DNA from: an uncultured Trueperaceae bacterium
GTDB lineage: Bacteria > Deinococcota > Deinococci > Deinococcales > Trueperaceae
Length of the DNA stretch: 64,000 bases
Reading direction: 5' to 3'
NCBI GenBank assembly: GCA_963727505.1
Contig: CAVSGP010000004.1
Location: 640,001-704,000, forward strand
Shown piece after piece: positions 732 to 24,106 of this stretch (the first letter of the stretch is position 1; the number at the start of each line of letters is the position of its first letter). The position numbers and the translations under genes are program-made. The notes below the pieces were generated by a model that saw only the letters and a program-made list of their open reading frames with translations, did not search any database and was not told the origin of the DNA.

Positions 732-1292
732 ATGAGGAATCGGAACCAGGTCATCGGCATCATCCTGATCGTCGCCGGCATCCTCGTCGTGATGGGACGG
801 TTGGCCGGCGCCGACAGCATCGGCTGGCCGCTGTTCGTGCTGCTCCCGGGCATCGCGCTGCTGGTGTGGGCGTTCCTGGGGGGCGAGGAAGCGGCGACGC
901 TGGCCATCCCCGGCAGCATCGTGACCACCATCGGCCTGATCCTGTTCGTGCAGAACCTCGGCGACTACTTCCAGTCATGGTCCTACGCCTGGGGACTGAT
1001 CGTATCCGGAGTCGGCTTCGGGATCTTCCTGCAGGGTGCCCTCACGGCCGATCACGACCGTGAACGCGAGGGCATGCGCGTCGTCACCGTCGGCCTCGCA
1101 CTCTTCGCCGCCTTCGGCGCCTTCTTCGAGTTCTTCATCTTCGACAACTGGGCGGGGAGTTGGGTCGGCCGCTGGCTGCTTCCGCTGGCCCTCATCGCAG
1201 CTGGACTGGTGCTCTGGGCCCGCCGGGGTAGCGACGGCAGCGGCGACCGCAACGGCAGCAGCGACGCCAGCGGCGACCGCACCGGGCCGTGA
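732..1292 (+). CDS. Multi-pass membrane protein (LiaF/DUF5668-like)
   Basis: About 6 hydrophobic segments, GIILIVAG...WPLFVLLPG pattern; SD AAGGAGG at 716-722. Confidence 0.6.
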   Translation: MRNRNQVIGIILIVAGILVVMGRLAGADSIGWPLFVLLPGIALLVWAFLGGEEAATLAIPGSIVTTIGLILFVQNLGDYFQSWSYAWGLIVSGVGFGIFLQGALTADHDREREGMRVVTVGLALFAAFGAFFEFFIFDNWAGSWVGRWLLPLALIAAGLVLWARRGSDGSGDRNGSSDASGDRTGP

Positions 1293-2308
1293 AGCAGGGC
1301 AGCTCCCGGCGCGATCTCCTGCCCGTCCTGCTGATCGCGGTCGGCATCCTGTGGCTACTGTTCCAGACCGGCTTCGTGCCGCCGCGGGTGCTCTCGGCGC
1401 TGGCGTTCTACTGGCCCCTGTTGCTGATCGGCATCGGGCTCGACCTGCTGCGCGTGCGGCGCCCCTGGGCCGTTCCCTACACGGGGCTGGCGGTCATCGT
1501 CGTGGTGCTGGTCGCCGTCCTGGTCCCGCAGACGGACGCCGGCCAGTCGGTGACGCGCTTCCGCGAACCGGTGGGCGCCGCACGCAGCGCCAGCGTCCGC
1601 CTGGAGCTGTCGAGCGCGCCGACCCACGTCTTCGCTGCGCCCGACGGCGCCGCCCTGCTCGACGCCGAGACTCGCGGGCGGCCTGGCGCAGCGTTCGACG
1701 TGCGCGGCGATCGCGACAAGACGGTCACCGTCCGCGCGCAGAACCGCGGGGCCTGGGTCTTCACCCCCGTGGGCAGCAGCCGCTGGGACCTCGGCCTCGG
1801 CCGCAGCCTCCCGCTCGACCTGACGGTCGACGGCGGCTCGGGCGGTGCGACCCTCGATCTCGACGGCCTGCAGCTCGCCGCGCTCCGGACCGACGTCGGA
1901 TCCGGCTCGGTGACGTTGAGCCTGCCCGGCCAGGTCGAGAGCTATCGCGCCAGCGTCGACGGCGGTAGCGGCGCCACACGCATCACCGTACCTTCCGATA
2001 CATCGCTGGAACTCGCCCTCGATACCGGCTCGGGAGCGACGCATCTGGCGCTTCCGCCCAGCGGCCGGGTGCGTGTGACACTGCGCTCCGGTAGCGGCCC
2101 CGTGACCATCGACGTACCCGACGGGGCGGCCGTGCGGCTGGAGGTCCAGGACGACGGTTCCGGCTCGTTGCGGGTGGCGCCCAGCCTGACGCGGCAGAGC
2201 GGCTCCGGCGACACCGGCGCGTGGGAAGCGCGAGGCGCGACGGGCACACCCGGGGAGATCCTGATCATGGTGGCGAGGGCAGGGTCGGGCAGCATCACAA
2301 TCCGCTGA
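1289..2308 (+). CDS. DUF5668-like membrane anchor plus DUF4097/toast-rack-like beta-repeat protein
   Basis: N-terminal TMs with YWPLLLIGIG; repeated xDxGSGxxxL beta units; GTGA overlap with upstream gene. Confidence 0.6.
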   Translation: MKQGSSRRDLLPVLLIAVGILWLLFQTGFVPPRVLSALAFYWPLLLIGIGLDLLRVRRPWAVPYTGLAVIVVVLVAVLVPQTDAGQSVTRFREPVGAARSASVRLELSSAPTHVFAAPDGAALLDAETRGRPGAAFDVRGDRDKTVTVRAQNRGAWVFTPVGSSRWDLGLGRSLPLDLTVDGGSGGATLDLDGLQLAALRTDVGSGSVTLSLPGQVESYRASVDGGSGATRITVPSDTSLELALDTGSGATHLALPPSGRVRVTLRSGSGPVTIDVPDGAAVRLEVQDDGSGSLRVAPSLTRQSGSGDTGAWEARGATGTPGEILIMVARAGSGSITIR

Positions 2309-2337: not shown

Positions 2338-3387
2338 ATGGCACTCGACCTTTCCTTCCTCCGGGAGCTGACCTCCGCGGCTGGCACGTCGGGCTTCGAG
2401 GCCCGGCCCGCCGCGGTCTGGCGCTCGCGCGCCGAGACCGCGGGCGCCGCACTCGCCACGGACGCCTACGGCAACGTCTTCGCCACCTTCCGGCCCGGCC
2501 GCAAGCCGCGCGTGATGCTCGCCGGACACATCGATGAGATCGGACTCATCGTCAGCTACATCGACGAGAACGGCTTGCTCTACGTGCGCCCGGTCGGCGG
2601 TTGGGATCCGATGCAGCTCGTCGGACAACGCGTCCGCGTCCTCGGCCATGGGGGCGACGTGCTGGGGGTCATCGGCAAGAAGGCCATCCACCTGATGAGC
2701 GCCGAGGACCGCCGCAAGGTGCCCAGCATGGATGACCTGTGGATCGACATCGGAGCCACCAACCGCGAGGAGACCGCTTCCCTCGTGCGGGCCGGTGACA
2801 CCGCGGTCATCGAGCAGCCGTTCGTAGAGCTGCTCAACGGCCGCGTTGCGAGCCGCGCCATCGACGACCGCATCGGCGCCTACGTGGCGCTGGAAGCGGC
2901 CCGGCGCGCCGGCGGCTCCGCCGAAGTCGTGGCCGTCGCGACCGTGCAGGAGGAGATCGGCGGGGTCGGCGCGCGCGCCGCGGCGTTCGCGCTCGAACCC
3001 GACGTCGCCATCGCCATCGACGTCACCCACGCCATCGACACGCCCGGACTGGAGAAGAAGCTCCACGGCGACGTGCCGCTCGGCGGCGGTCCGGTACTGA
3101 CGGCCGGTTCCTACGTGCACCGCGCCGTGATGGAGGGCCTGCGCGCGACCGCCGAACGCGAGGGCATCCCGGTGAGTGTCGGCGTGTCCCCCCGGCGCAC
3201 GGCCACCGACGCCGACCACATCGCTCCGGCGCGCGCGGGTACGCCCAGCGCGGTGGTATCGATCCCGAACCGCTACATGCACTCGCCCAACGAGATGGTC
3301 GACCTAGCGGACGTGGAGCGCACCATCGACCTGCTGGCCGCCTTCATCGGCAGCCTCGCCGAGGACACGCGCTTCCTGCATACCTGA
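2338..3387 (+). CDS. M42 family aminopeptidase
   Basis: GHIDEIG, DDRIG, VQEEIG, IDVT, RYMHS motifs; TATGCT -10 lies 7 nt before ATG. Confidence 0.9.
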   Translation: MALDLSFLRELTSAAGTSGFEARPAAVWRSRAETAGAALATDAYGNVFATFRPGRKPRVMLAGHIDEIGLIVSYIDENGLLYVRPVGGWDPMQLVGQRVRVLGHGGDVLGVIGKKAIHLMSAEDRRKVPSMDDLWIDIGATNREETASLVRAGDTAVIEQPFVELLNGRVASRAIDDRIGAYVALEAARRAGGSAEVVAVATVQEEIGGVGARAAAFALEPDVAIAIDVTHAIDTPGLEKKLHGDVPLGGGPVLTAGSYVHRAVMEGLRATAEREGIPVSVGVSPRRTATDADHIAPARAGTPSAVVSIPNRYMHSPNEMVDLADVERTIDLLAAFIGSLAEDTRFLHT

Positions 3388-19131: not shown

Positions 19132-20001
19132 TCAGCGGCGGAAGGTGACGGTCGCCCGCACCCCCTGCCAGGTGACGGTGATCGGCCGGTAGAGGTCGAA
19201 CCAGGGTGGGAGGAGCAGGACCGCGGCCGCCGGGGCATCGGGGCCGACACGCGTGCTCGAGCCCTGCACCATGCGCATGCGGTAGGGGTAGCGGATCGGC
19301 AGGCTACGGCCATCCTGCTCCAGCACGAAGGTCGCGTCCCACGTGCTCGGCGCCAGCGACGACACCAGCACCAGCAGGGGTTTGTCGCTCCCGATGCGCT
19401 CCAGAGCCCCGTCGATGGCGTCCCGCTGCGAAGGCCGCACCAGCGGCAGCAGATCGAGGTCGGCGACCAGGACCGCGACCCCGTCGCCCCCCGTGGCGTC
19501 CGCCGCGAACAGGCGAAGCCCCGGGACGCCGTGGCCGAGATCGTCGACCTCGCTGCGGCCGCCGCTCCCCGCCACCGCTGGCGACGGCACCGCCAGCGCC
19601 ACCGTGCGCCCGCCGGGGAGGACGAGGCGTTCTCCCTCCAGTCGGATGCCGAGCGTATCGAGCGCGTCCGTAGGCAGGTACCAGGTCCCGTCGCGAAGCA
19701 GCGCCGGGGCGGACAGGCTGAGGGTGCTGGAGCTCGTGGCGCCCGCGGCCTGCCACAGCGCGTCGGGCGACCCCGCGAAGACGGTGAGCGTGCCCGCCAC
19801 GGCGCGCCACGTCAGGCTGCCCTCGCCGGTCACCAGGATGTCTCCGAGGGCCCGCGCCACGGGCGCCGCCGGCGTGTAGAGCGTCCCCGCCACGCGGACG
19901 GCCGCCACAGGGTCGGCCGCCACGGGGTCGGCGCGCGCGACGCCGAGCGCCGCGCCGGCCACCAGCGCCAGAACGAGGAGAGCGAGCCGGGTCGGGCCCA
20001 C
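19132..20001 (-). CDS. Secreted hypothetical protein with copper-amine-oxidase N-terminal (stalk)-like domain
   Basis: Signal-like RLALLVLALVAGAALGVARA; GTLYTP..VARALG..LSAPALLRDGTWYLP pattern; TAGGCT -10 before GTG. Confidence 0.55.
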   Translation of the reverse strand: MGPTRLALLVLALVAGAALGVARADPVAADPVAAVRVAGTLYTPAAPVARALGDILVTGEGSLTWRAVAGTLTVFAGSPDALWQAAGATSSSTLSLSAPALLRDGTWYLPTDALDTLGIRLEGERLVLPGGRTVALAVPSPAVAGSGGRSEVDDLGHGVPGLRLFAADATGGDGVAVLVADLDLLPLVRPSQRDAIDGALERIGSDKPLLVLVSSLAPSTWDATFVLEQDGRSLPIRYPYRMRMVQGSSTRVGPDAPAAAVLLLPPWFDLYRPITVTWQGVRATVTFRR

Positions 20002-20111
20002 GCCGCCGAGCCTAGCATGCGCCGACGGCGGCTCCGCGAGCGACCCGCGAGGACGCAACGCGCCGCCGACGGGGTCGTAGGGAGGCCGCACCAGGGGGGT
20101 CGCGCTGCGCG

Positions 20112-20176
20112 GGGTCGCACTCGCGGGTCGCGCTCGGGGGTCGCACTCGCGGGTCGCACTCGGGGGTCGCGCTCGC
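20112..20176. repeat. Five tandem 13-bp units GGGTCGC(A/G)CTCG(C/G)
   Basis: Units start at 20112, 20125, 20138, 20151, 20164; degenerate unit near 20097. Confidence 0.9.
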
Positions 20177-20215
20177 GGGAGGGGCGCGGGGACCGATGCG
20201 CCAGAACCGATGCGC

Positions 20216-20447
20216 TAGAATGGACGCAGTGAGCACGGTACGAACCTCACCGGGCGCGGGCGGCGGTCTCCTCTGAGACCCGGCACGGTCACCTTGCTTT
20301 GGTCCCCCTTCGACAATCCTTGCCGGCCGGGCTCCGGCCGATCCTCGCCCGCCCTTGGCGGCGGCGAGCGGGCTCGTTCGCCGGAGCGCGCCTCACGCCA
20401 CGCCACCGAAGGCCCTAGGAACGCCCTCTCGGAAAGGAGCAGCCGCT
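20216..20447 (+). promoter_or_regulatory. hflX promoter and structured leader with uORF (putative attenuator)
   Basis: TAGAAT 20216-21; GTG uORF 20229-20276; overlapping alternative hairpins 20252-20382; SD AAAGGAG 20433-39. Confidence 0.5.
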
Positions 20448-22151
20448 ATCGACAAGGTCCACGGTAAGCTCTCCGGCCTGAAGGTCGGACAGATCAAACG
20501 CCTGGGGAACCTGTACCGGCGTCGCGTCCCGCCCGACGCAGCCGTCACCAACGACCTGGCACGCGCGCTGACCGCGCTCAGCGCCGACATCGGCCGTCAG
20601 GTGAGCGTGTTGGTGGACCGGCGCGGGCGGGTGGTGACGGTGGCTGCCGGGGATGCGATCGACACACCCCTGCCTCCGCCCTCGGGGGAGGTCACGTCGC
20701 GCCTGTACGGGCTTCGACTCATCCACACCCACCTCAAGCCCGTCGGGCTCAGCGGCGACGACCTGACCACGCTCTTCCTGAACCGGCTGGACGCCGTGAT
20801 GGCGATCGAGGCGAAGAGCGACGGCCTGCCGGGGATTGCCCACATGGCGCAGGTGGCGCCCCCGACCAGCGAGCACGAGGACTGGATCCTCGACCCGCCC
20901 ATGACCGTCCCCGAGCTCGAGCGCATCGACTTCACCGAGCGTCTGCACGCTCTCGAGGAGGAGATGGCGCGACAGGTGCAGGCCCGCGAGGTCGCGCGCA
21001 GCAGTGCCGAACGTGCCGTGCTGGTGGGCCTGGAATCGGGCGAGGGCCTCATCGAGGCCGAGTCGCGCCTGGAGGAGCTGGCGGAGCTGGTTAGCAGCGC
21101 GGGCGGAACGGTGGCCTGGAGCAGCCTGCAGCAACGGAGCCACGCCGACCAGAAGACGCTGGTCGGCCGCGGCAAGCTCCATGAGCTGGTCTCCAAGGCC
21201 TACCACGAGGACGCCGACCTTATGGTCTTCGATCGCGAGCTCTCCCCTGCCCAGGCCCGTGAGATCGAGGGGCTCACCCACCTGAAGGTGTTGGATCGCA
21301 CCCAGGTGATCCTCGACATCTTCGCGCAGAACGCACGGGGCCGCGAGGCGCAGGTACAGGTCGAACTGGCGCAGCTCCAGTACCAGCTCCCGCGGCTCGC
21401 CGGTCGCGGCCGCACCATGAGCCGGCTCGGCGGTGGGATCGGCACGCGGGGCCCCGGCGAGACCAAGCTCGAGGTCGACCGGCGGCGCATCCGCGACCGC
21501 ATCGTCAGCCTCGAGAGCGCCGTCGACGAGATCAGCCAGCGCCGCACCGAGACGCGCAAGAGCCGCACCGAGGCCAGCACCCCGGTCGTCGCGCTGGTCG
21601 GGTACACCAACGCCGGCAAGTCGACGCTGTTCAACGCCCTGGCCAAGTCCGACGCCATCAGTCGCAACCGGCTCTTCGCCACCCTGCGGCCGACGACGCG
21701 CGAAGGCTGGCTCCCGGCACTCGGCGAGTGGGGCGGCAAGGTGCTCTACACCGACACGGTGGGGTTCATCCGCGATCTGCCCGAGGAACTGGTCAATGCC
21801 TTCCGGGCCACGCTGGAGGAGCTGCACGACGCTGATCTATTGCTGCACGTCGTCGACGCCGCATCACCCGGAGCGCCGGAGCGAGTGGACGCAGTCCAGC
21901 GCATCCTCGACGAGCTCGGGCTGAAGCCCCCTCGCCGCGTGGTGCTGAACAAGACCGATGCGGCGGATGCGGAGGTCTTGACGGGCCTGTTGCAACGCTT
22001 CGACGCCACCGGCGTCTCGGCGCGGACGGGCGAGGGGCTCGACGCGCTGAAGGCGTCCCTGGCGCGCGCGCTCGAGGGCGCACGTCACGTGCCGCTGCCC
22101 GACGACCCGGCGCAGGCCTACGGTTGGGCGTCGGCCCGCAACGGCGACTGA
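20448..22151 (+). CDS. hflX: GTPase HflX, long N-terminal form, probable ATC start
   Basis: DRTQVILDIF, QVELAQLQY, GIGTRGPGETKLE, GYTNAGKST, DTVGFI, NKTD. Confidence 0.93.
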   Translation: MDKVHGKLSGLKVGQIKRLGNLYRRRVPPDAAVTNDLARALTALSADIGRQVSVLVDRRGRVVTVAAGDAIDTPLPPPSGEVTSRLYGLRLIHTHLKPVGLSGDDLTTLFLNRLDAVMAIEAKSDGLPGIAHMAQVAPPTSEHEDWILDPPMTVPELERIDFTERLHALEEEMARQVQAREVARSSAERAVLVGLESGEGLIEAESRLEELAELVSSAGGTVAWSSLQQRSHADQKTLVGRGKLHELVSKAYHEDADLMVFDRELSPAQAREIEGLTHLKVLDRTQVILDIFAQNARGREAQVQVELAQLQYQLPRLAGRGRTMSRLGGGIGTRGPGETKLEVDRRRIRDRIVSLESAVDEISQRRTETRKSRTEASTPVVALVGYTNAGKSTLFNALAKSDAISRNRLFATLRPTTREGWLPALGEWGGKVLYTDTVGFIRDLPEELVNAFRATLEELHDADLLLHVVDAASPGAPERVDAVQRILDELGLKPPRRVVLNKTDAADAEVLTGLLQRFDATGVSARTGEGLDALKASLARALEGARHVPLPDDPAQAYGWASARNGD

Positions 22152-22219: not shown

Positions 22220-24106
22220 ATGGATGACGGCGACCTCCACGACCTTCAAGGGTTGAAGGACCTGCGTGGCTTCCTGGCATTCCTTGAACGCCGCGGCGAG
22301 TTGGTGCGCGTCCGCGAGAGCGTGTCCGCCGCCTTCGAGATCACCGAGATCGCCGACCGCGTCGTGAAGCGCGGAGGACCTGCCCTGCTGTTCGAGAACG
22401 TCGAGGGCAAGGACATTCCGGTCGCCATCAACCTATTCGGCACCCGCCAGCGCACCGCCTGGGCGCTGGGCGTGGCGTCGCTCGACGCCATCGCCGACCG
22501 CATCCGCGGCCTGCTCGACGTACGCCTGGGCGGTGGCCTGCTCGGGCTCATGTCGAACCTGCCCAAGCTGCGCGAGGTCGCGTCGCTCCCCGCCAAACGA
22601 GTGCGCAACGCGCCCGTGCATCAGGTGGTGTGGCAAGGCGATGAGGTGGACCTGGCGCGTCTGCCGGTGTTGACCTGCTGGCCCAACGACGGCGGCCCCT
22701 TCGTGACACTCCCGCTGGTGGTGACGCGCGATCCCCTGCGAGGCGACGTGAACGTGGGCATGTACCGGATGCAGGTCTTCGACCGGGCCACCACCGGCAT
22801 GCACTGGCAGCGTCACAAGACCGGCGCGCGCCACCTCGAGAGCGCCCGCCAGGCGGGCGAGCGGCTCGAGGTGGCGGTGGCGCTGGGGGGAGATCCGGCG
22901 CTCACCTATGCCGCCACGGCGCCGCTCCCAACGCTTCCCGGGCTCAACGAGTACGCACTCACCGGCTTCCTGCGGGGGCGTTCGCTCGAAGTGACGCCGG
23001 GTCTCACGGTCGATCTCGACGTACCCGCCCACGCCGAGTTCGTGATCGAGGGCTACGTGGACCCCGAGGAGCCCTGGCGGCCCGAAGGTCCCTTCGGCGA
23101 CCACACCGGCTTCTACACCTTGACCGACCTCTACCCGGCGTTTCACGTCACCGCCATCACGATGCGCCGCGATCCCATCTATCCGGCCACCATCGTGGGT
23201 CGCCCCCCCATGGAGGACGCCTACCTGATCGAGGCCAGCGAACGCATCTTCCTGGTGCCCGCCCAGGTGGTGATGCCCGAGCTCGTCGACTACCACATGC
23301 CGCCGGCCGGCATCGCGCACAACCTGGTGAACGTCCGCATCGACAAGCGCTACCCGGGGCAGGCCTACAAGGTGGCGAACGGCCTGCTGGGCCTCGGGCA
23401 GATGATGTTCGCCAAGGTCCTGCTGGTTTCGGACGACGACGTGGCCGTCACCGACACGCTGGCGTTCTGGCGCGCGGTGCTGGCGCGAGCGCTGCCCGGC
23501 CGGGACGAACAGTTCGCGCGTGGCCCGATCGACGTGCTGGACCACTCCAGCCGCTCCTGGAGCTTCGGCTCCAAACTGGTCATCGACGGCACGCGCAAGC
23601 ATCCGGAGGAAGGCGACGAGGTGGCCTGGACCCCGAACGAGGAGCGGCCGGCGAGCGCGCTGCCGCACCACGCCGAGATCGCGGGGCAGCACCAGCTCGC
23701 GGGGGGGTTCTGGTTCATCACCACCCGCAAGACCCGGGCCGACCAGGGGCGCCACCTGGGCGAGTGGGCTGCGCGCCAGCCGGCCTGCCGCGGCGTGCGG
23801 TTGATCGCCGTGCTCGACGACGAGACCGATCCCGCCGATTTCGACGACTGCATCTGGACGCTCCTGAACAACATCGATCCCGAGCGCGACGTGCAGGTGG
23901 TGGACAGCTTCGCGGGCGTGCCGGTGTACGTCATGGACGGCACACCCAAGCTCGCCGAGGAGGGATTCACGCGGCCCTGGCCCCAGAAGATCCGCATGTC
24001 CGACGACGTCAAGCGGCGCGTCGGCCCCATCGTGGATCGGCTCGATCTTCCCGCCGAACCCGCTCCGGGCGACGAGCGGGACGCCGCGCTCGAGCGCGAG
24101 GCCTGA
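22220..24106 (+). CDS. UbiD-family decarboxylase (menaquinone/futalosine-pathway type)
   Basis: GGPALLFEN, NVGMYRMQ, PEGPFGDHTGFY, GRPPMED, GLGQMMFAK. Confidence 0.85.
   Translation: MDDGDLHDLQGLKDLRGFLAFLERRGELVRVRESVSAAFEITEIADRVVKRGGPALLFENVEGKDIPVAINLFGTRQRTAWALGVASLDAIADRIRGLLDVRLGGGLLGLMSNLPKLREVASLPAKRVRNAPVHQVVWQGDEVDLARLPVLTCWPNDGGPFVTLPLVVTRDPLRGDVNVGMYRMQVFDRATTGMHWQRHKTGARHLESARQAGERLEVAVALGGDPALTYAATAPLPTLPGLNEYALTGFLRGRSLEVTPGLTVDLDVPAHAEFVIEGYVDPEEPWRPEGPFGDHTGFYTLTDLYPAFHVTAITMRRDPIYPATIVGRPPMEDAYLIEASERIFLVPAQVVMPELVDYHMPPAGIAHNLVNVRIDKRYPGQAYKVANGLLGLGQMMFAKVLLVSDDDVAVTDTLAFWRAVLARALPGRDEQFARGPIDVLDHSSRSWSFGSKLVIDGTRKHPEEGDEVAWTPNEERPASALPHHAEIAGQHQLAGGFWFITTRKTRADQGRHLGEWAARQPACRGVRLIAVLDDETDPADFDDCIWTLLNNIDPERDVQVVDSFAGVPVYVMDGTPKLAEEGFTRPWPQKIRMSDDVKRRVGPIVDRLDLPAEPAPGDERDAALEREA

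Follow-up and report, generated by a model that had tools for sequence, protein, structure and literature searches.

A conserved upstream reading frame of leaderless geometry and a family-wide ATH start codon at hflX of a Trueperaceae-type bacterium

In a Trueperaceae-type bacterium, does the hflX 5' leader respond to the state of the ribosomes, and by what device? HflX splits stalled or damaged ribosomes, and a paralogue in Firmicutes makes cells resistant to macrolides and lincosamides, its expression being turned on by an attenuator containing an upstream open reading frame (uORF). The question arose for a 64,000-nucleotide (nt) stretch of DNA from an uncultured Trueperaceae bacterium (contig CAVSGP010000004.1, positions 640,001 to 704,000; the whole stretch is called the window below; G+C about 71%). 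Positions 20216-20447 of the window are the hflX promoter and 5' leader, the leader region being 230 nt long with 72% G+C. An initial annotation had read it as a ribosome-sensing attenuator, in which a uORF is followed by alternative pairings (1:2, 2:3 and 3:4) among four segments, 20252-62, 20344-54, 20357-68 and 20375-82. The main elements are as follows.

20216-20221, plus strand: -10 box TAGAAT of the hflX promoter, the sole TANNNT in the 350 nt ahead of hflX.
20229-20276, plus strand: uORF of leaderless geometry, with a GTG start after a 7-nt spacer from TAGAAT, 15 codons (MSTVRTSPGAGGGLL) and a TGA at 20274-76.
20431-20439, plus strand: Shine-Dalgarno (SD) sequence GGAAAGGAG of hflX, 8 nt before the ATC at 20448.
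20448-22151, plus strand: hflX, 567 codons, with an ATC start and a long N-terminal extension ahead of the HflX core.

The product of the open reading frame (ORF) 20355-22151 was identified as the GTPase HflX (TIGR03156, E 2.2e-126). It contained the Pfam domains GTP-bdg_N, GTP-bdg_M and MMR_HSR1, and matched HflX chains in the PDB over residues 164-544 (best 8vio, up to 1.8e-85). Its relatives were proteins from metagenome-assembled genomes of Trueperaceae with 66-97% identity (P0003 97%, P0002 95%, P0004 88%). Judged within the window, the gene appears to be an hflX of the long, housekeeping type and not an additional copy for resistance. In the relatives the conserved sequence opened with I(D/E)KVHGKLSGLK, which in the window corresponds to ATC 20448. 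The TTG at 20355 was rejected as the start of hflX: the 31 extra residues were not conserved, and in relatives that stretch contained stops or -10 boxes.

One scan of species-representative genomes yielded 80 hflX loci. Long-form HflX was encoded by 26 of them, of which 25 were usable (L001-L009, L011-L025 and L030); L010, a contig without the 5' end of the gene, was excluded from all counts. L062 was a distant long-form hflX (45% identity). The 53 remaining loci, mostly of Actinomycetota, encoded short-form HflX and were left out.

The hflX start was ATH in all 27 long-form genes, that is, the window, the 25 usable loci and L062. In the 26 Trueperaceae-type genes it was ATC (15), ATA (8) or ATT (3), and never ATG, GTG or TTG. 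In 14 of the 26, the stretch from the preceding in-frame stop to the ATH had no canonical in-frame start, and in L005, L014 and L018 the stop was just 6 nt away. The first residue (I1) was invariant and K3 to G6 nearly so. Most starts followed a strong SD, an SD-like GGAG or AGGAG being located 4-16 nt upstream of the ATH in 22 of the 26 genes. The NCBI protein P0061 agreed with the translation of L009 in 569 of 570 residues, the difference being M for the residue encoded by ATA. This indicated that annotation pipelines already put the start at the ATA of L009. The family-wide ATH start is the strongest signal of this locus.

Four relatives lacked a leader altogether. In L003, L004 and L023 (each at 2986-3003) a TANNNT was located 6 nt before the hflX ATC, and in L013 (at 30-46) the distance was 5 nt; no SD was present in these genes. 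This arrangement arose at least twice on the HflX tree. By its geometry, hflX of these four would be transcribed as a leaderless mRNA beginning with AUC. Current rules of leaderless initiation require a 5'-AUG or GUG, and such natural leaderless mRNAs starting at AUC, if true, would fall outside them.

Non-canonical starts have been described in Deinococcota for dnaA (ATC), infC (ATA) and rpsL (CTG) (PMC2830850), and control of such start codons by initiation factor 3 (IF3) is established in the accounts of PMC2830850 and, for Streptomyces sigR, PMC5472188. The hflX start resembled those of infC (AUU/AUA), Deinococcus deserti dnaA (ATC; PMC2830850) and sigR (GTC; PMC5472188) in being a conserved non-AUG codon with a good SD; hflX, too, belongs to the translation apparatus, and the phylum is known for such starts. 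It differed from them in that the hflX AUC of four relatives would sit at the very 5' end of the mRNA. The name hflX had 0 occurrences in PMC2830850, and literature searches on the hflX start codon and IF3 and on Deinococcus hflX listed no report of a non-canonical hflX start.

When TANNNT followed by an ATG or GTG that opens an ORF of at least 120 codons was counted in the window, there were 15 cases at a spacing of 6 nt and 12 at 7 nt, and 0-3 at every other spacing from 0 to 20 nt. The annotation had likened the TAGAAT, 7 nt ahead of GTG 20229, to the promoters of leaderless genes in the window, and these counts (27 long ORFs at 6-7 nt versus 0-3 elsewhere) bore out the likeness. At least 27 long ORFs on both strands of the 64 kb thus had a TANNNT 6 or 7 nt before their ATG or GTG, ubiD at 22220, directly after hflX, among them. 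Leaderless mRNAs appear to dominate in this genome.

Only 2 of the 134 TANNNT boxes in the 64 kb opened an ORF of fewer than 50 codons at 6-7 nt. One was the hflX uORF; the other, at 1977 on the minus strand, lay inside long ORFs and was set aside as probably due to chance. From this geometry, and because TAGAAT is the sole TANNNT within 350 nt, the hflX mRNA very probably starts at or beside GTG 20229. The -10 region (GCGCTAGAAT) was retained in L024 and L001, and read GCGCTAGACT in L002. A TTGACA-type -35 element was looked for at the hflX promoter and not found. The -10 box overlapped a short repeat.

20192-20219, plus strand: a 14-nt unit duplicated in tandem (ACCGATGCGCYAGA; according to Tandem Repeats Finder, 2.1 copies of period 14 with 93% matches).

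The -10 box starts within the second copy. In the first, CAGAAC stands in place of TAGAAT; with C for T this copy has no TANNNT and is not a second -10 box.

The uORF ran from 20229 to 20276 and read MSTVRTSPGAGGGLL followed by TGA, just as annotated. Its stop lies 171 nt before the hflX ATC, with no other TANNNT between them. Only three leaders could be aligned with that of the window, namely those of L024 (HflX 90% identical), L001 (83%) and L002 (77%). In the HflX tree the window, L024 and L001 formed a clade (support 99/98), of which L002 is probably the sister. The alignment of these four leaders is called A3 below.

The four leaders open with (G/A)TGAGC 7-9 nt past the -10 box and finish at one invariant CTGA. 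The uORFs of the window, L024, L001 and L002 are 15, 15, 15 and 13 codons long and share the same aligned TGA. In L001 the shared ACGGTAC block lies one base further from the start, with the total length of 48 nt unchanged; L002 differs by 6 nt. The annotation had asked for conservation, and the -10 box and the start, length and TGA of the uORF were indeed kept in L024, L001 and L002.

The peptides, on the other hand, diverged (MSTVRTSPGAGGGLL, MSTVRYLPREDRGLG, MSDGTTLRHAGGCFH and MSACIPRRAGGTV) and had no common motif. Those of the window and L024 have only MSTVR in common, with 2 synonymous third-base changes. The window peptide is Gly-rich, and composition varied in the relatives. A kept frame, length and stop without a kept peptide would fit a uORF whose translation matters and, equally, a length-constrained RNA; the four sequences cannot separate the two. 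In another lineage, Truepera sp. L011 and L016, short uORFs were found about 160-185 nt before hflX, encoding MSRFTYA and MTGFRIVYA. They have F...YA and the stop in common, although the Ala codons differ synonymously and the stop codons are not the same, which hints at constraint on the peptide in that lineage.

The numbers of invariant columns in the four leaders, block by block, were as follows.

-10 box: 10 of 12 columns.
uORF: 14 of 48 columns.
uORF stop to hairpin H3 (20277-20340): 23 of 65 columns.
Spacer (20341-20430): 13 of 90 columns.
SD to ATC+15: 22 of 32 columns.
DNA upstream of the promoter: 29 of 260 columns.

The uORF and the next 65 nt were thus 29-35% invariant, versus 11-14% in the spacer and the upstream DNA. 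As judged from these counts, the 5' half of the leader is under constraint, and the part with segments 2, 3 and 4 of the annotated cascade is not.

An ATG or GTG 7-11 nt after the chosen -10 box was present in 14 of 22 hflX leaders and in 8 of 11 lineages. The background for such a start codon was 0.154 for all TANNNT and 0.248 for GCTANNNT, and the binomial probability for 8 of 11 lay between 1.1e-3 and 3.4e-5. Three of the 14 recurrent 5' ORFs overlap hflX.

Two paired elements at the end of the uORF enter the argument from here on.

20265-20280, plus strand: hairpin H1, a perfect inverted repeat (GGTCTC, loop CTCT, GAGACC); the uORF stop at 20274-76 straddles the loop and the 3' arm.
20275-20334, plus strand: helix of 20275-89 with 20322-34, 13 pairs, 82.6% of the cells paired in A3.

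The interpretation that we prefer, tentatively and at somewhat less than an even chance, is that translation of a leaderless uORF influences, in cis, an hflX gene that is itself weakly initiated, in the manner of toiL and topAI. On this interpretation, 70S ribosomes would bind at the 5'-terminal GUG and go on to translate the uORF, and the act of translation would matter, not the peptide. The hflX gene would be intrinsically weakly initiated at its AUC, with a long untranslated spacer between it and the uORF. The variable sensed would most likely be ribosome occupancy at the 3' end of the uORF, the site of H1 and of a CUCC able to pair with the SD. Occupancy would alter how accessible the SD and/or the conserved block 20275-20340 is: with a ribosome kept at this end, the SD and/or the segment 20275-89 would become free and hflX translation would rise, and the raised translation would shield the transcript from polarity. 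The downstream stems 2:3 and 3:4 of the annotation would be no part of the mechanism.

Several known systems resemble parts of this scheme. In E. coli tnaC-tnaA, a ribosome held at the uORF stop beside a C-rich tract blocks Rho; the hflX leader differs in having no conserved arrest peptide and, in the window, no C-rich tract above chance. Leaderless uORFs with Cys codons are reportedly present in mycobacteria. E. coli toiL-topAI has no terminator hairpin, and its uORF can pair with the SD of the main gene (PMC12121999), as is predicted for the uORF in the window. As described there, the main gene becomes exposed to Rho when it is poorly translated, and no specific arrest peptide is needed. The toiL uORF is SD-led and proven, whereas the pairing here is a 4-nt CUCC in one genome (20268-71, inside the uORF, the main predicted partner of the GGAG of the hflX SD, p about 0.48), with a rut-like composition that was not significant.

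Within the phylum, D. deserti has leaderless leader peptides on leadered mRNAs such as those of cysS and trpE, among others (PMC4007540). These share with the hflX leader a -10 box directly before a 5'-terminal AUG or GUG, a short 5' ORF and a main gene with its own SD. Unlike them, the uORF here encodes an uninformative peptide and precedes hflX; the D. deserti peptides are rich in the sensed amino acid and precede tRNA-synthetase or biosynthesis genes (PMC4007540). HflX protein of D. radiodurans rises after mitomycin C independently of IrrE (PMC8533742), so that hflX is stress-responsive in this phylum.

The precedent cited by the annotation, induction of Listeria hflXr by ribosome-targeting antibiotics through a uORF attenuator, is as reported in PMC6310831. 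Like L. monocytogenes rli80-hflXr (PMC6310831), the present locus has a short uORF (14 codons there, 15 here) ahead of an hflX-family gene, and the logic, namely that stalled ribosomes should induce the splitting factor, would be shared. In rli80-hflXr the uORF is preceded by an SD and encodes an Arg-Leu-Arg (RLR) arrest motif, and the leader has an intrinsic terminator with defined terminator, antiterminator and anti-antiterminator segments (PMC6310831). The uORF here, in contrast, is leaderless, without RLR, terminator or conserved alternative stems, and no homology in sequence or structure was seen.

The RLR motif (R/K-x-R/K) was absent from the four clade peptides, and none of 14 uORF peptides has RLR. 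Judged by its peptide, which has no RLR motif, the hflX leader here is not an rli80-type attenuator. A further uORF candidate thought to sense stalled ribosomes, uORFC-6-1, lies upstream of hflX in Bacillales (PMC8632094). It has strong covariation and a conserved Arg-Leu-Arg, of which the leader here has neither, and it belongs to another phylum (PMC8632094). The precedents of the preferred interpretation are thus the uORF control of hflX in Listeria (PMC6310831), the Bacillales candidate (PMC8632094), toiL-topAI (PMC12121999) and the D. deserti leader peptides (PMC4007540).

A number of results weigh against a cis-acting, translated uORF. Just four leaders could be aligned, and a covariance model of the conserved 5' half (R1), run over 27 sources (the window and the 26 loci), matched its own four training sequences only and no further hflX leader; the next best match (18.8 bits, E 0.076) was on the wrong strand. 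In the count of recurrent 5' start codons, the -10 box of low-G+C relatives was picked among several, partly by eye. Spacings of 9-11 nt fall outside the strict 6-7 nt geometry, so that a few bases would precede the start codon at the 5' end. A 5'-AUG or GUG on a leadered mRNA is expected by chance in a few percent of promoters. No 5' start codon was present in 8 of the 22 leaders, and 4 further genes had no leader, so that the device is dispensable in the family.

The folding of the leader pointed the same way. Its minimum free energy (MFE) was -102.2, compared with a mean of -106.6 for dinucleotide shuffles (z +0.96), and 165 of 200 shuffles folded at least as well. It stood at the 66th percentile of 400 real genome windows, and at the 84th after adjustment for G+C. 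RNAalifold on the four leaders gave only weak consensus structures (-20.7 and -15.1 kcal/mol), whose covariation terms were -0.12 and +1.62, and no helix with covariation was found. The pairing partner of the SD within the uORF lay elsewhere in L024, L001 and L002, and chance would be expected to supply a CUCC of 4 nt. By eye, a hairpin enclosing the stop of the uORF seemed to recur (the window, L024, L001, L002, L007 and L025); it was rejected, its stability in 14 leaders being ordinary against the background of each genome (fractions 0.07-0.98).

The annotation had considered control by Rho. The best rut-like 78-nt segment (C 36, G 19) was in the top 1.2% of single windows. Against a length-matched null, however, P for the C-over-G tract was 0.22 (window) and 0.88 (L024), and only 3 of 21 leaders fell below 0.05. 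Rho-dependent control thus found no support in the window, and this too counts against the preferred scheme.

A rival explanation ranked nearly equal to the preferred one, and we regard it as a possibility to be taken seriously. The uORF may be the by-product of a leaderless-type promoter that happens to start on GUG, with hflX output set by the promoter and by initiation at a poor AUH start that IF3 would discriminate against, as in infC or Streptomyces sigR. Whether made or not, the peptide would be of no consequence. The hairpins would then be what any RNA of 72% G+C offers, in line with leader structure at chance. This explanation accounts for the ATH start in 26 of 26 genes and in L062, for the lack of canonical alternatives in 14 of the 26 with a stop 6 nt away in three, and for the invariant I1. 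The unconserved peptide, the 8 of 22 leaders without a 5' start codon and the 4 genes without a leader also agree with it. In D. deserti, 173 extra transcripts with a 5'-AUG or GUG are known, most of them with no role assigned in that report (PMC4007540), and many of these may be by-products likewise; IF3 control of non-canonical starts is established (PMC2830850, PMC5472188).

On the other hand, the uORF has kept its start, length and stop throughout the clade although indels occurred, which speaks against a by-product. Together with the block after it, the uORF was 2-3 times more conserved than neutral neighbours, and 5' start codons were enriched across lineages. A by-product also leaves the conserved CGACAAYC and hairpin H3, described below, unexplained.

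A broader proposal combines the two signals. Trueperaceae may tie HflX synthesis to the state of translation initiation through two stacked devices, a leaderless uORF that samples 70S loading and an obligatory AUH start, the latter at the mRNA's 5' end in L003, L004, L013 and L023. We consider this combination rather unlikely. Neither a uORF ahead of hflX nor a leaderless leader peptide in Deinococcota is a new kind of element; a leaderless, RLR-less and terminator-less uORF before hflX would be new, if functional. The literature searches made listed no description of an hflX leader in Deinococcota.

If the preferred interpretation is true, Deinococcota would have invented independently the principle that stalled ribosomes induce a ribosome rescuer, without SD, arrest motif or terminator, and the locus would be a simple test case for regulation by leaderless uORFs. 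If the uORF is inert, the leader is an ordinary one. The family-wide AUH start is a concrete, testable case of putative control at the level of the start codon for a translation-quality-control factor, and it appears leaderless in four genomes. The interest of the locus rests on the conserved uORF and, more so, on this start.

A third explanation sets the uORF in second place. The conserved 5' half (20229 to about 20340) might be a unit of its own: either a short RNA ending at H3, or a place where a protein or RNA binds and so governs read-through or stability. The elements of such a site would be the pyrimidine tract, the motif CGACAAYC (CGACAATCC) and H3, and two features of the leader are concerned.

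20303-20319, plus strand: pyrimidine tract, followed by CGACAATC(C) at 20311-19.
20324-20340, plus strand: hairpin H3, a perfect 7-bp G+C hairpin (CGGCCGG, loop GCT, CCGGCCG).

Conservation ends right after H3. The hairpin was perfect and invariant in the three sequences that align there, with 100% of the cells paired and 6 of the 7 pairs never varying. The motif CGACAAYC occurred 5 times in 6543 nt of hflX leaders (once each in the window, L001 and the distant L009, and twice in the distant L006), versus 10 times in 349 kb elsewhere, an enrichment of about 25-fold. These copies were preceded by a pyrimidine run. Listeria rli80 offers a parallel as a constitutive short RNA (PMC6310831).

Despite these points we hold a separate unit to be distinctly unlikely. 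H3 is followed by GATCCTCGCC, with no U-tract. Since its pairs hardly vary, it has no covariation and no sign of selection as a structure. No Rfam family was found: with Rfam 15 there were 0 matches at gathering in the window, the best hit in 19900-20700 (search at E<=10) was an unrelated small RNA with E 1.2, and the loci of 10 relatives gave 0 matches in hflX leaders, their one match being an FMN riboswitch elsewhere in L025. CGACAAYC had no partner sequence, and its distance to the hflX start varied (about -112 in L001, -211 and -38 in L006, -91 in L009). No second copy above chance was present in the window, and model R1 matched nothing in other leaders.

Other roles for these elements were considered and rejected. 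As a regulon motif, CGACAAYC gave 4 matches versus 3.06 expected in the window. Readings of the motif as a coding frame, as a palindromic operator or as a -35 element with its -10 further downstream were tried too, and none suited all copies. H3 as a repeated extragenic palindrome was unique in the window and found in 2 of 80 loci. An operator of the DdrO/RDRM type, sought with a degenerate pattern of our own making, was not found in 19900-20500.

The pairings proposed by the annotation remain to be weighed, and most of them fall in one block of the leader.

20341-20430, plus strand: variable spacer with segments 2, 3 and 4 (20344-54, 20357-68 and 20375-82), in which pairwise identity averages 0.38, equal to that of the DNA upstream of the promoter.

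The pairings named were possible, as claimed, with duplex energies from -9.0 to -23.9 kcal/mol. They were -17.0 kcal/mol for 20253-62/20346-54, -23.9 for 20275-89/20322-34, -16.6 for 20344-53/20357-68 and -9.0 for 20360-66/20375-82. Each of these duplexes did better than segment pairs drawn at random with like geometry (fractions 0.001-0.067), but they were hand-picked from a 230-nt region of 72% G+C. The long 1:2 stem was present in the MFE fold of the window; the MFE structure of the leader makes up only 0.0008 of the ensemble. The statement that no U-tract is present was also correct, and there were 0 terminator-like sites in 19900-20700.

In A3, 64.5% of the cells were paired in the helix 20253-62/20346-54, 60.7% in helix 2:3 and 47.6% in helix 3:4. 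The last two were above neither shuffles nor slid controls, and 1:2 was not above column shuffles. Relatives had other hairpins or deletions at segments 2-4, the deletions being in L001 and L002. Stem 3:4 made no contact with the hflX SD. The folding and covariation tests suggested in the annotation thus turned out negative, the leader folding no better than shuffles and covariation being absent in the four leaders; the cascade was not borne out.

A switch of this kind, in which a ribosome in the uORF decides between 20344-54 pairing with 20252-62 or 20357-68, and 20357-68 with 20344-54 or 20375-82, is therefore very unlikely: its four pairings have good energies, 1:2 is in the MFE fold and segment 1 lies inside the uORF, but comparison largely refuted it by placing segments 2-4 in a block conserved no better than background, with no terminator for 3:4 to form and no excess stability.

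In the conserved half, another set of alternatives was present, as the helix 20275-89/20322-34 excludes both H1 and H3. This set was intact just in the window and L024, which are near-identical there. H1 was identical in L024 and lost in L001 and L002 (66.7% of the cells paired), and its local stability was ordinary. The helix was kept by sequence identity, with 5 of 13 pairs invariant and 1 double change, and was not above shuffles.

Some features of the gene and its surroundings were also noted. Residues 1 to about 185 of HflX (20448-21000) form a conserved N-terminal domain outside known families, with no Pfam match at E<=10 and no PDB sequence match. Its AlphaFold model (pLDDT 84.8) matched almost only JAB1/MPN proteins (CSN5, Rpn11 and PfJAMM1), weakly (E 1e-3 to 3e-2, TM 0.2-0.47). 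H93, H95 and D105 were invariant and S102 nearly so, giving the pattern HxHx6Sx2D, presumably one residue shorter than the JAMM zinc motif. The domain may represent a fusion of HflX with a module of the MPN type.

On the other side of the promoter, a divergent gene (19132-20001, minus strand) also had leaderless geometry, with TAGGCT, 7 nt and a GTG at 20001. Its product has a hydrophobic, signal-like N-terminus and is without a Pfam family. A CTAGCA-type box at the same position in several relatives suggests that the synteny of this gene is conserved. Between the two divergent promoters, at 20097-20191, lay a tandem array of a 13-nt unit (GGGTCGCACTCGC) in about 6 copies, or of 26 nt in 3 (tandem repeat listed at 20097-20179); the aligned upstream DNA of three close relatives had no such array. 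In L025, an FMN riboswitch (1283-1511, minus strand, 97.3 bits), unrelated to the leader, was located about 1.5 kb upstream of hflX.

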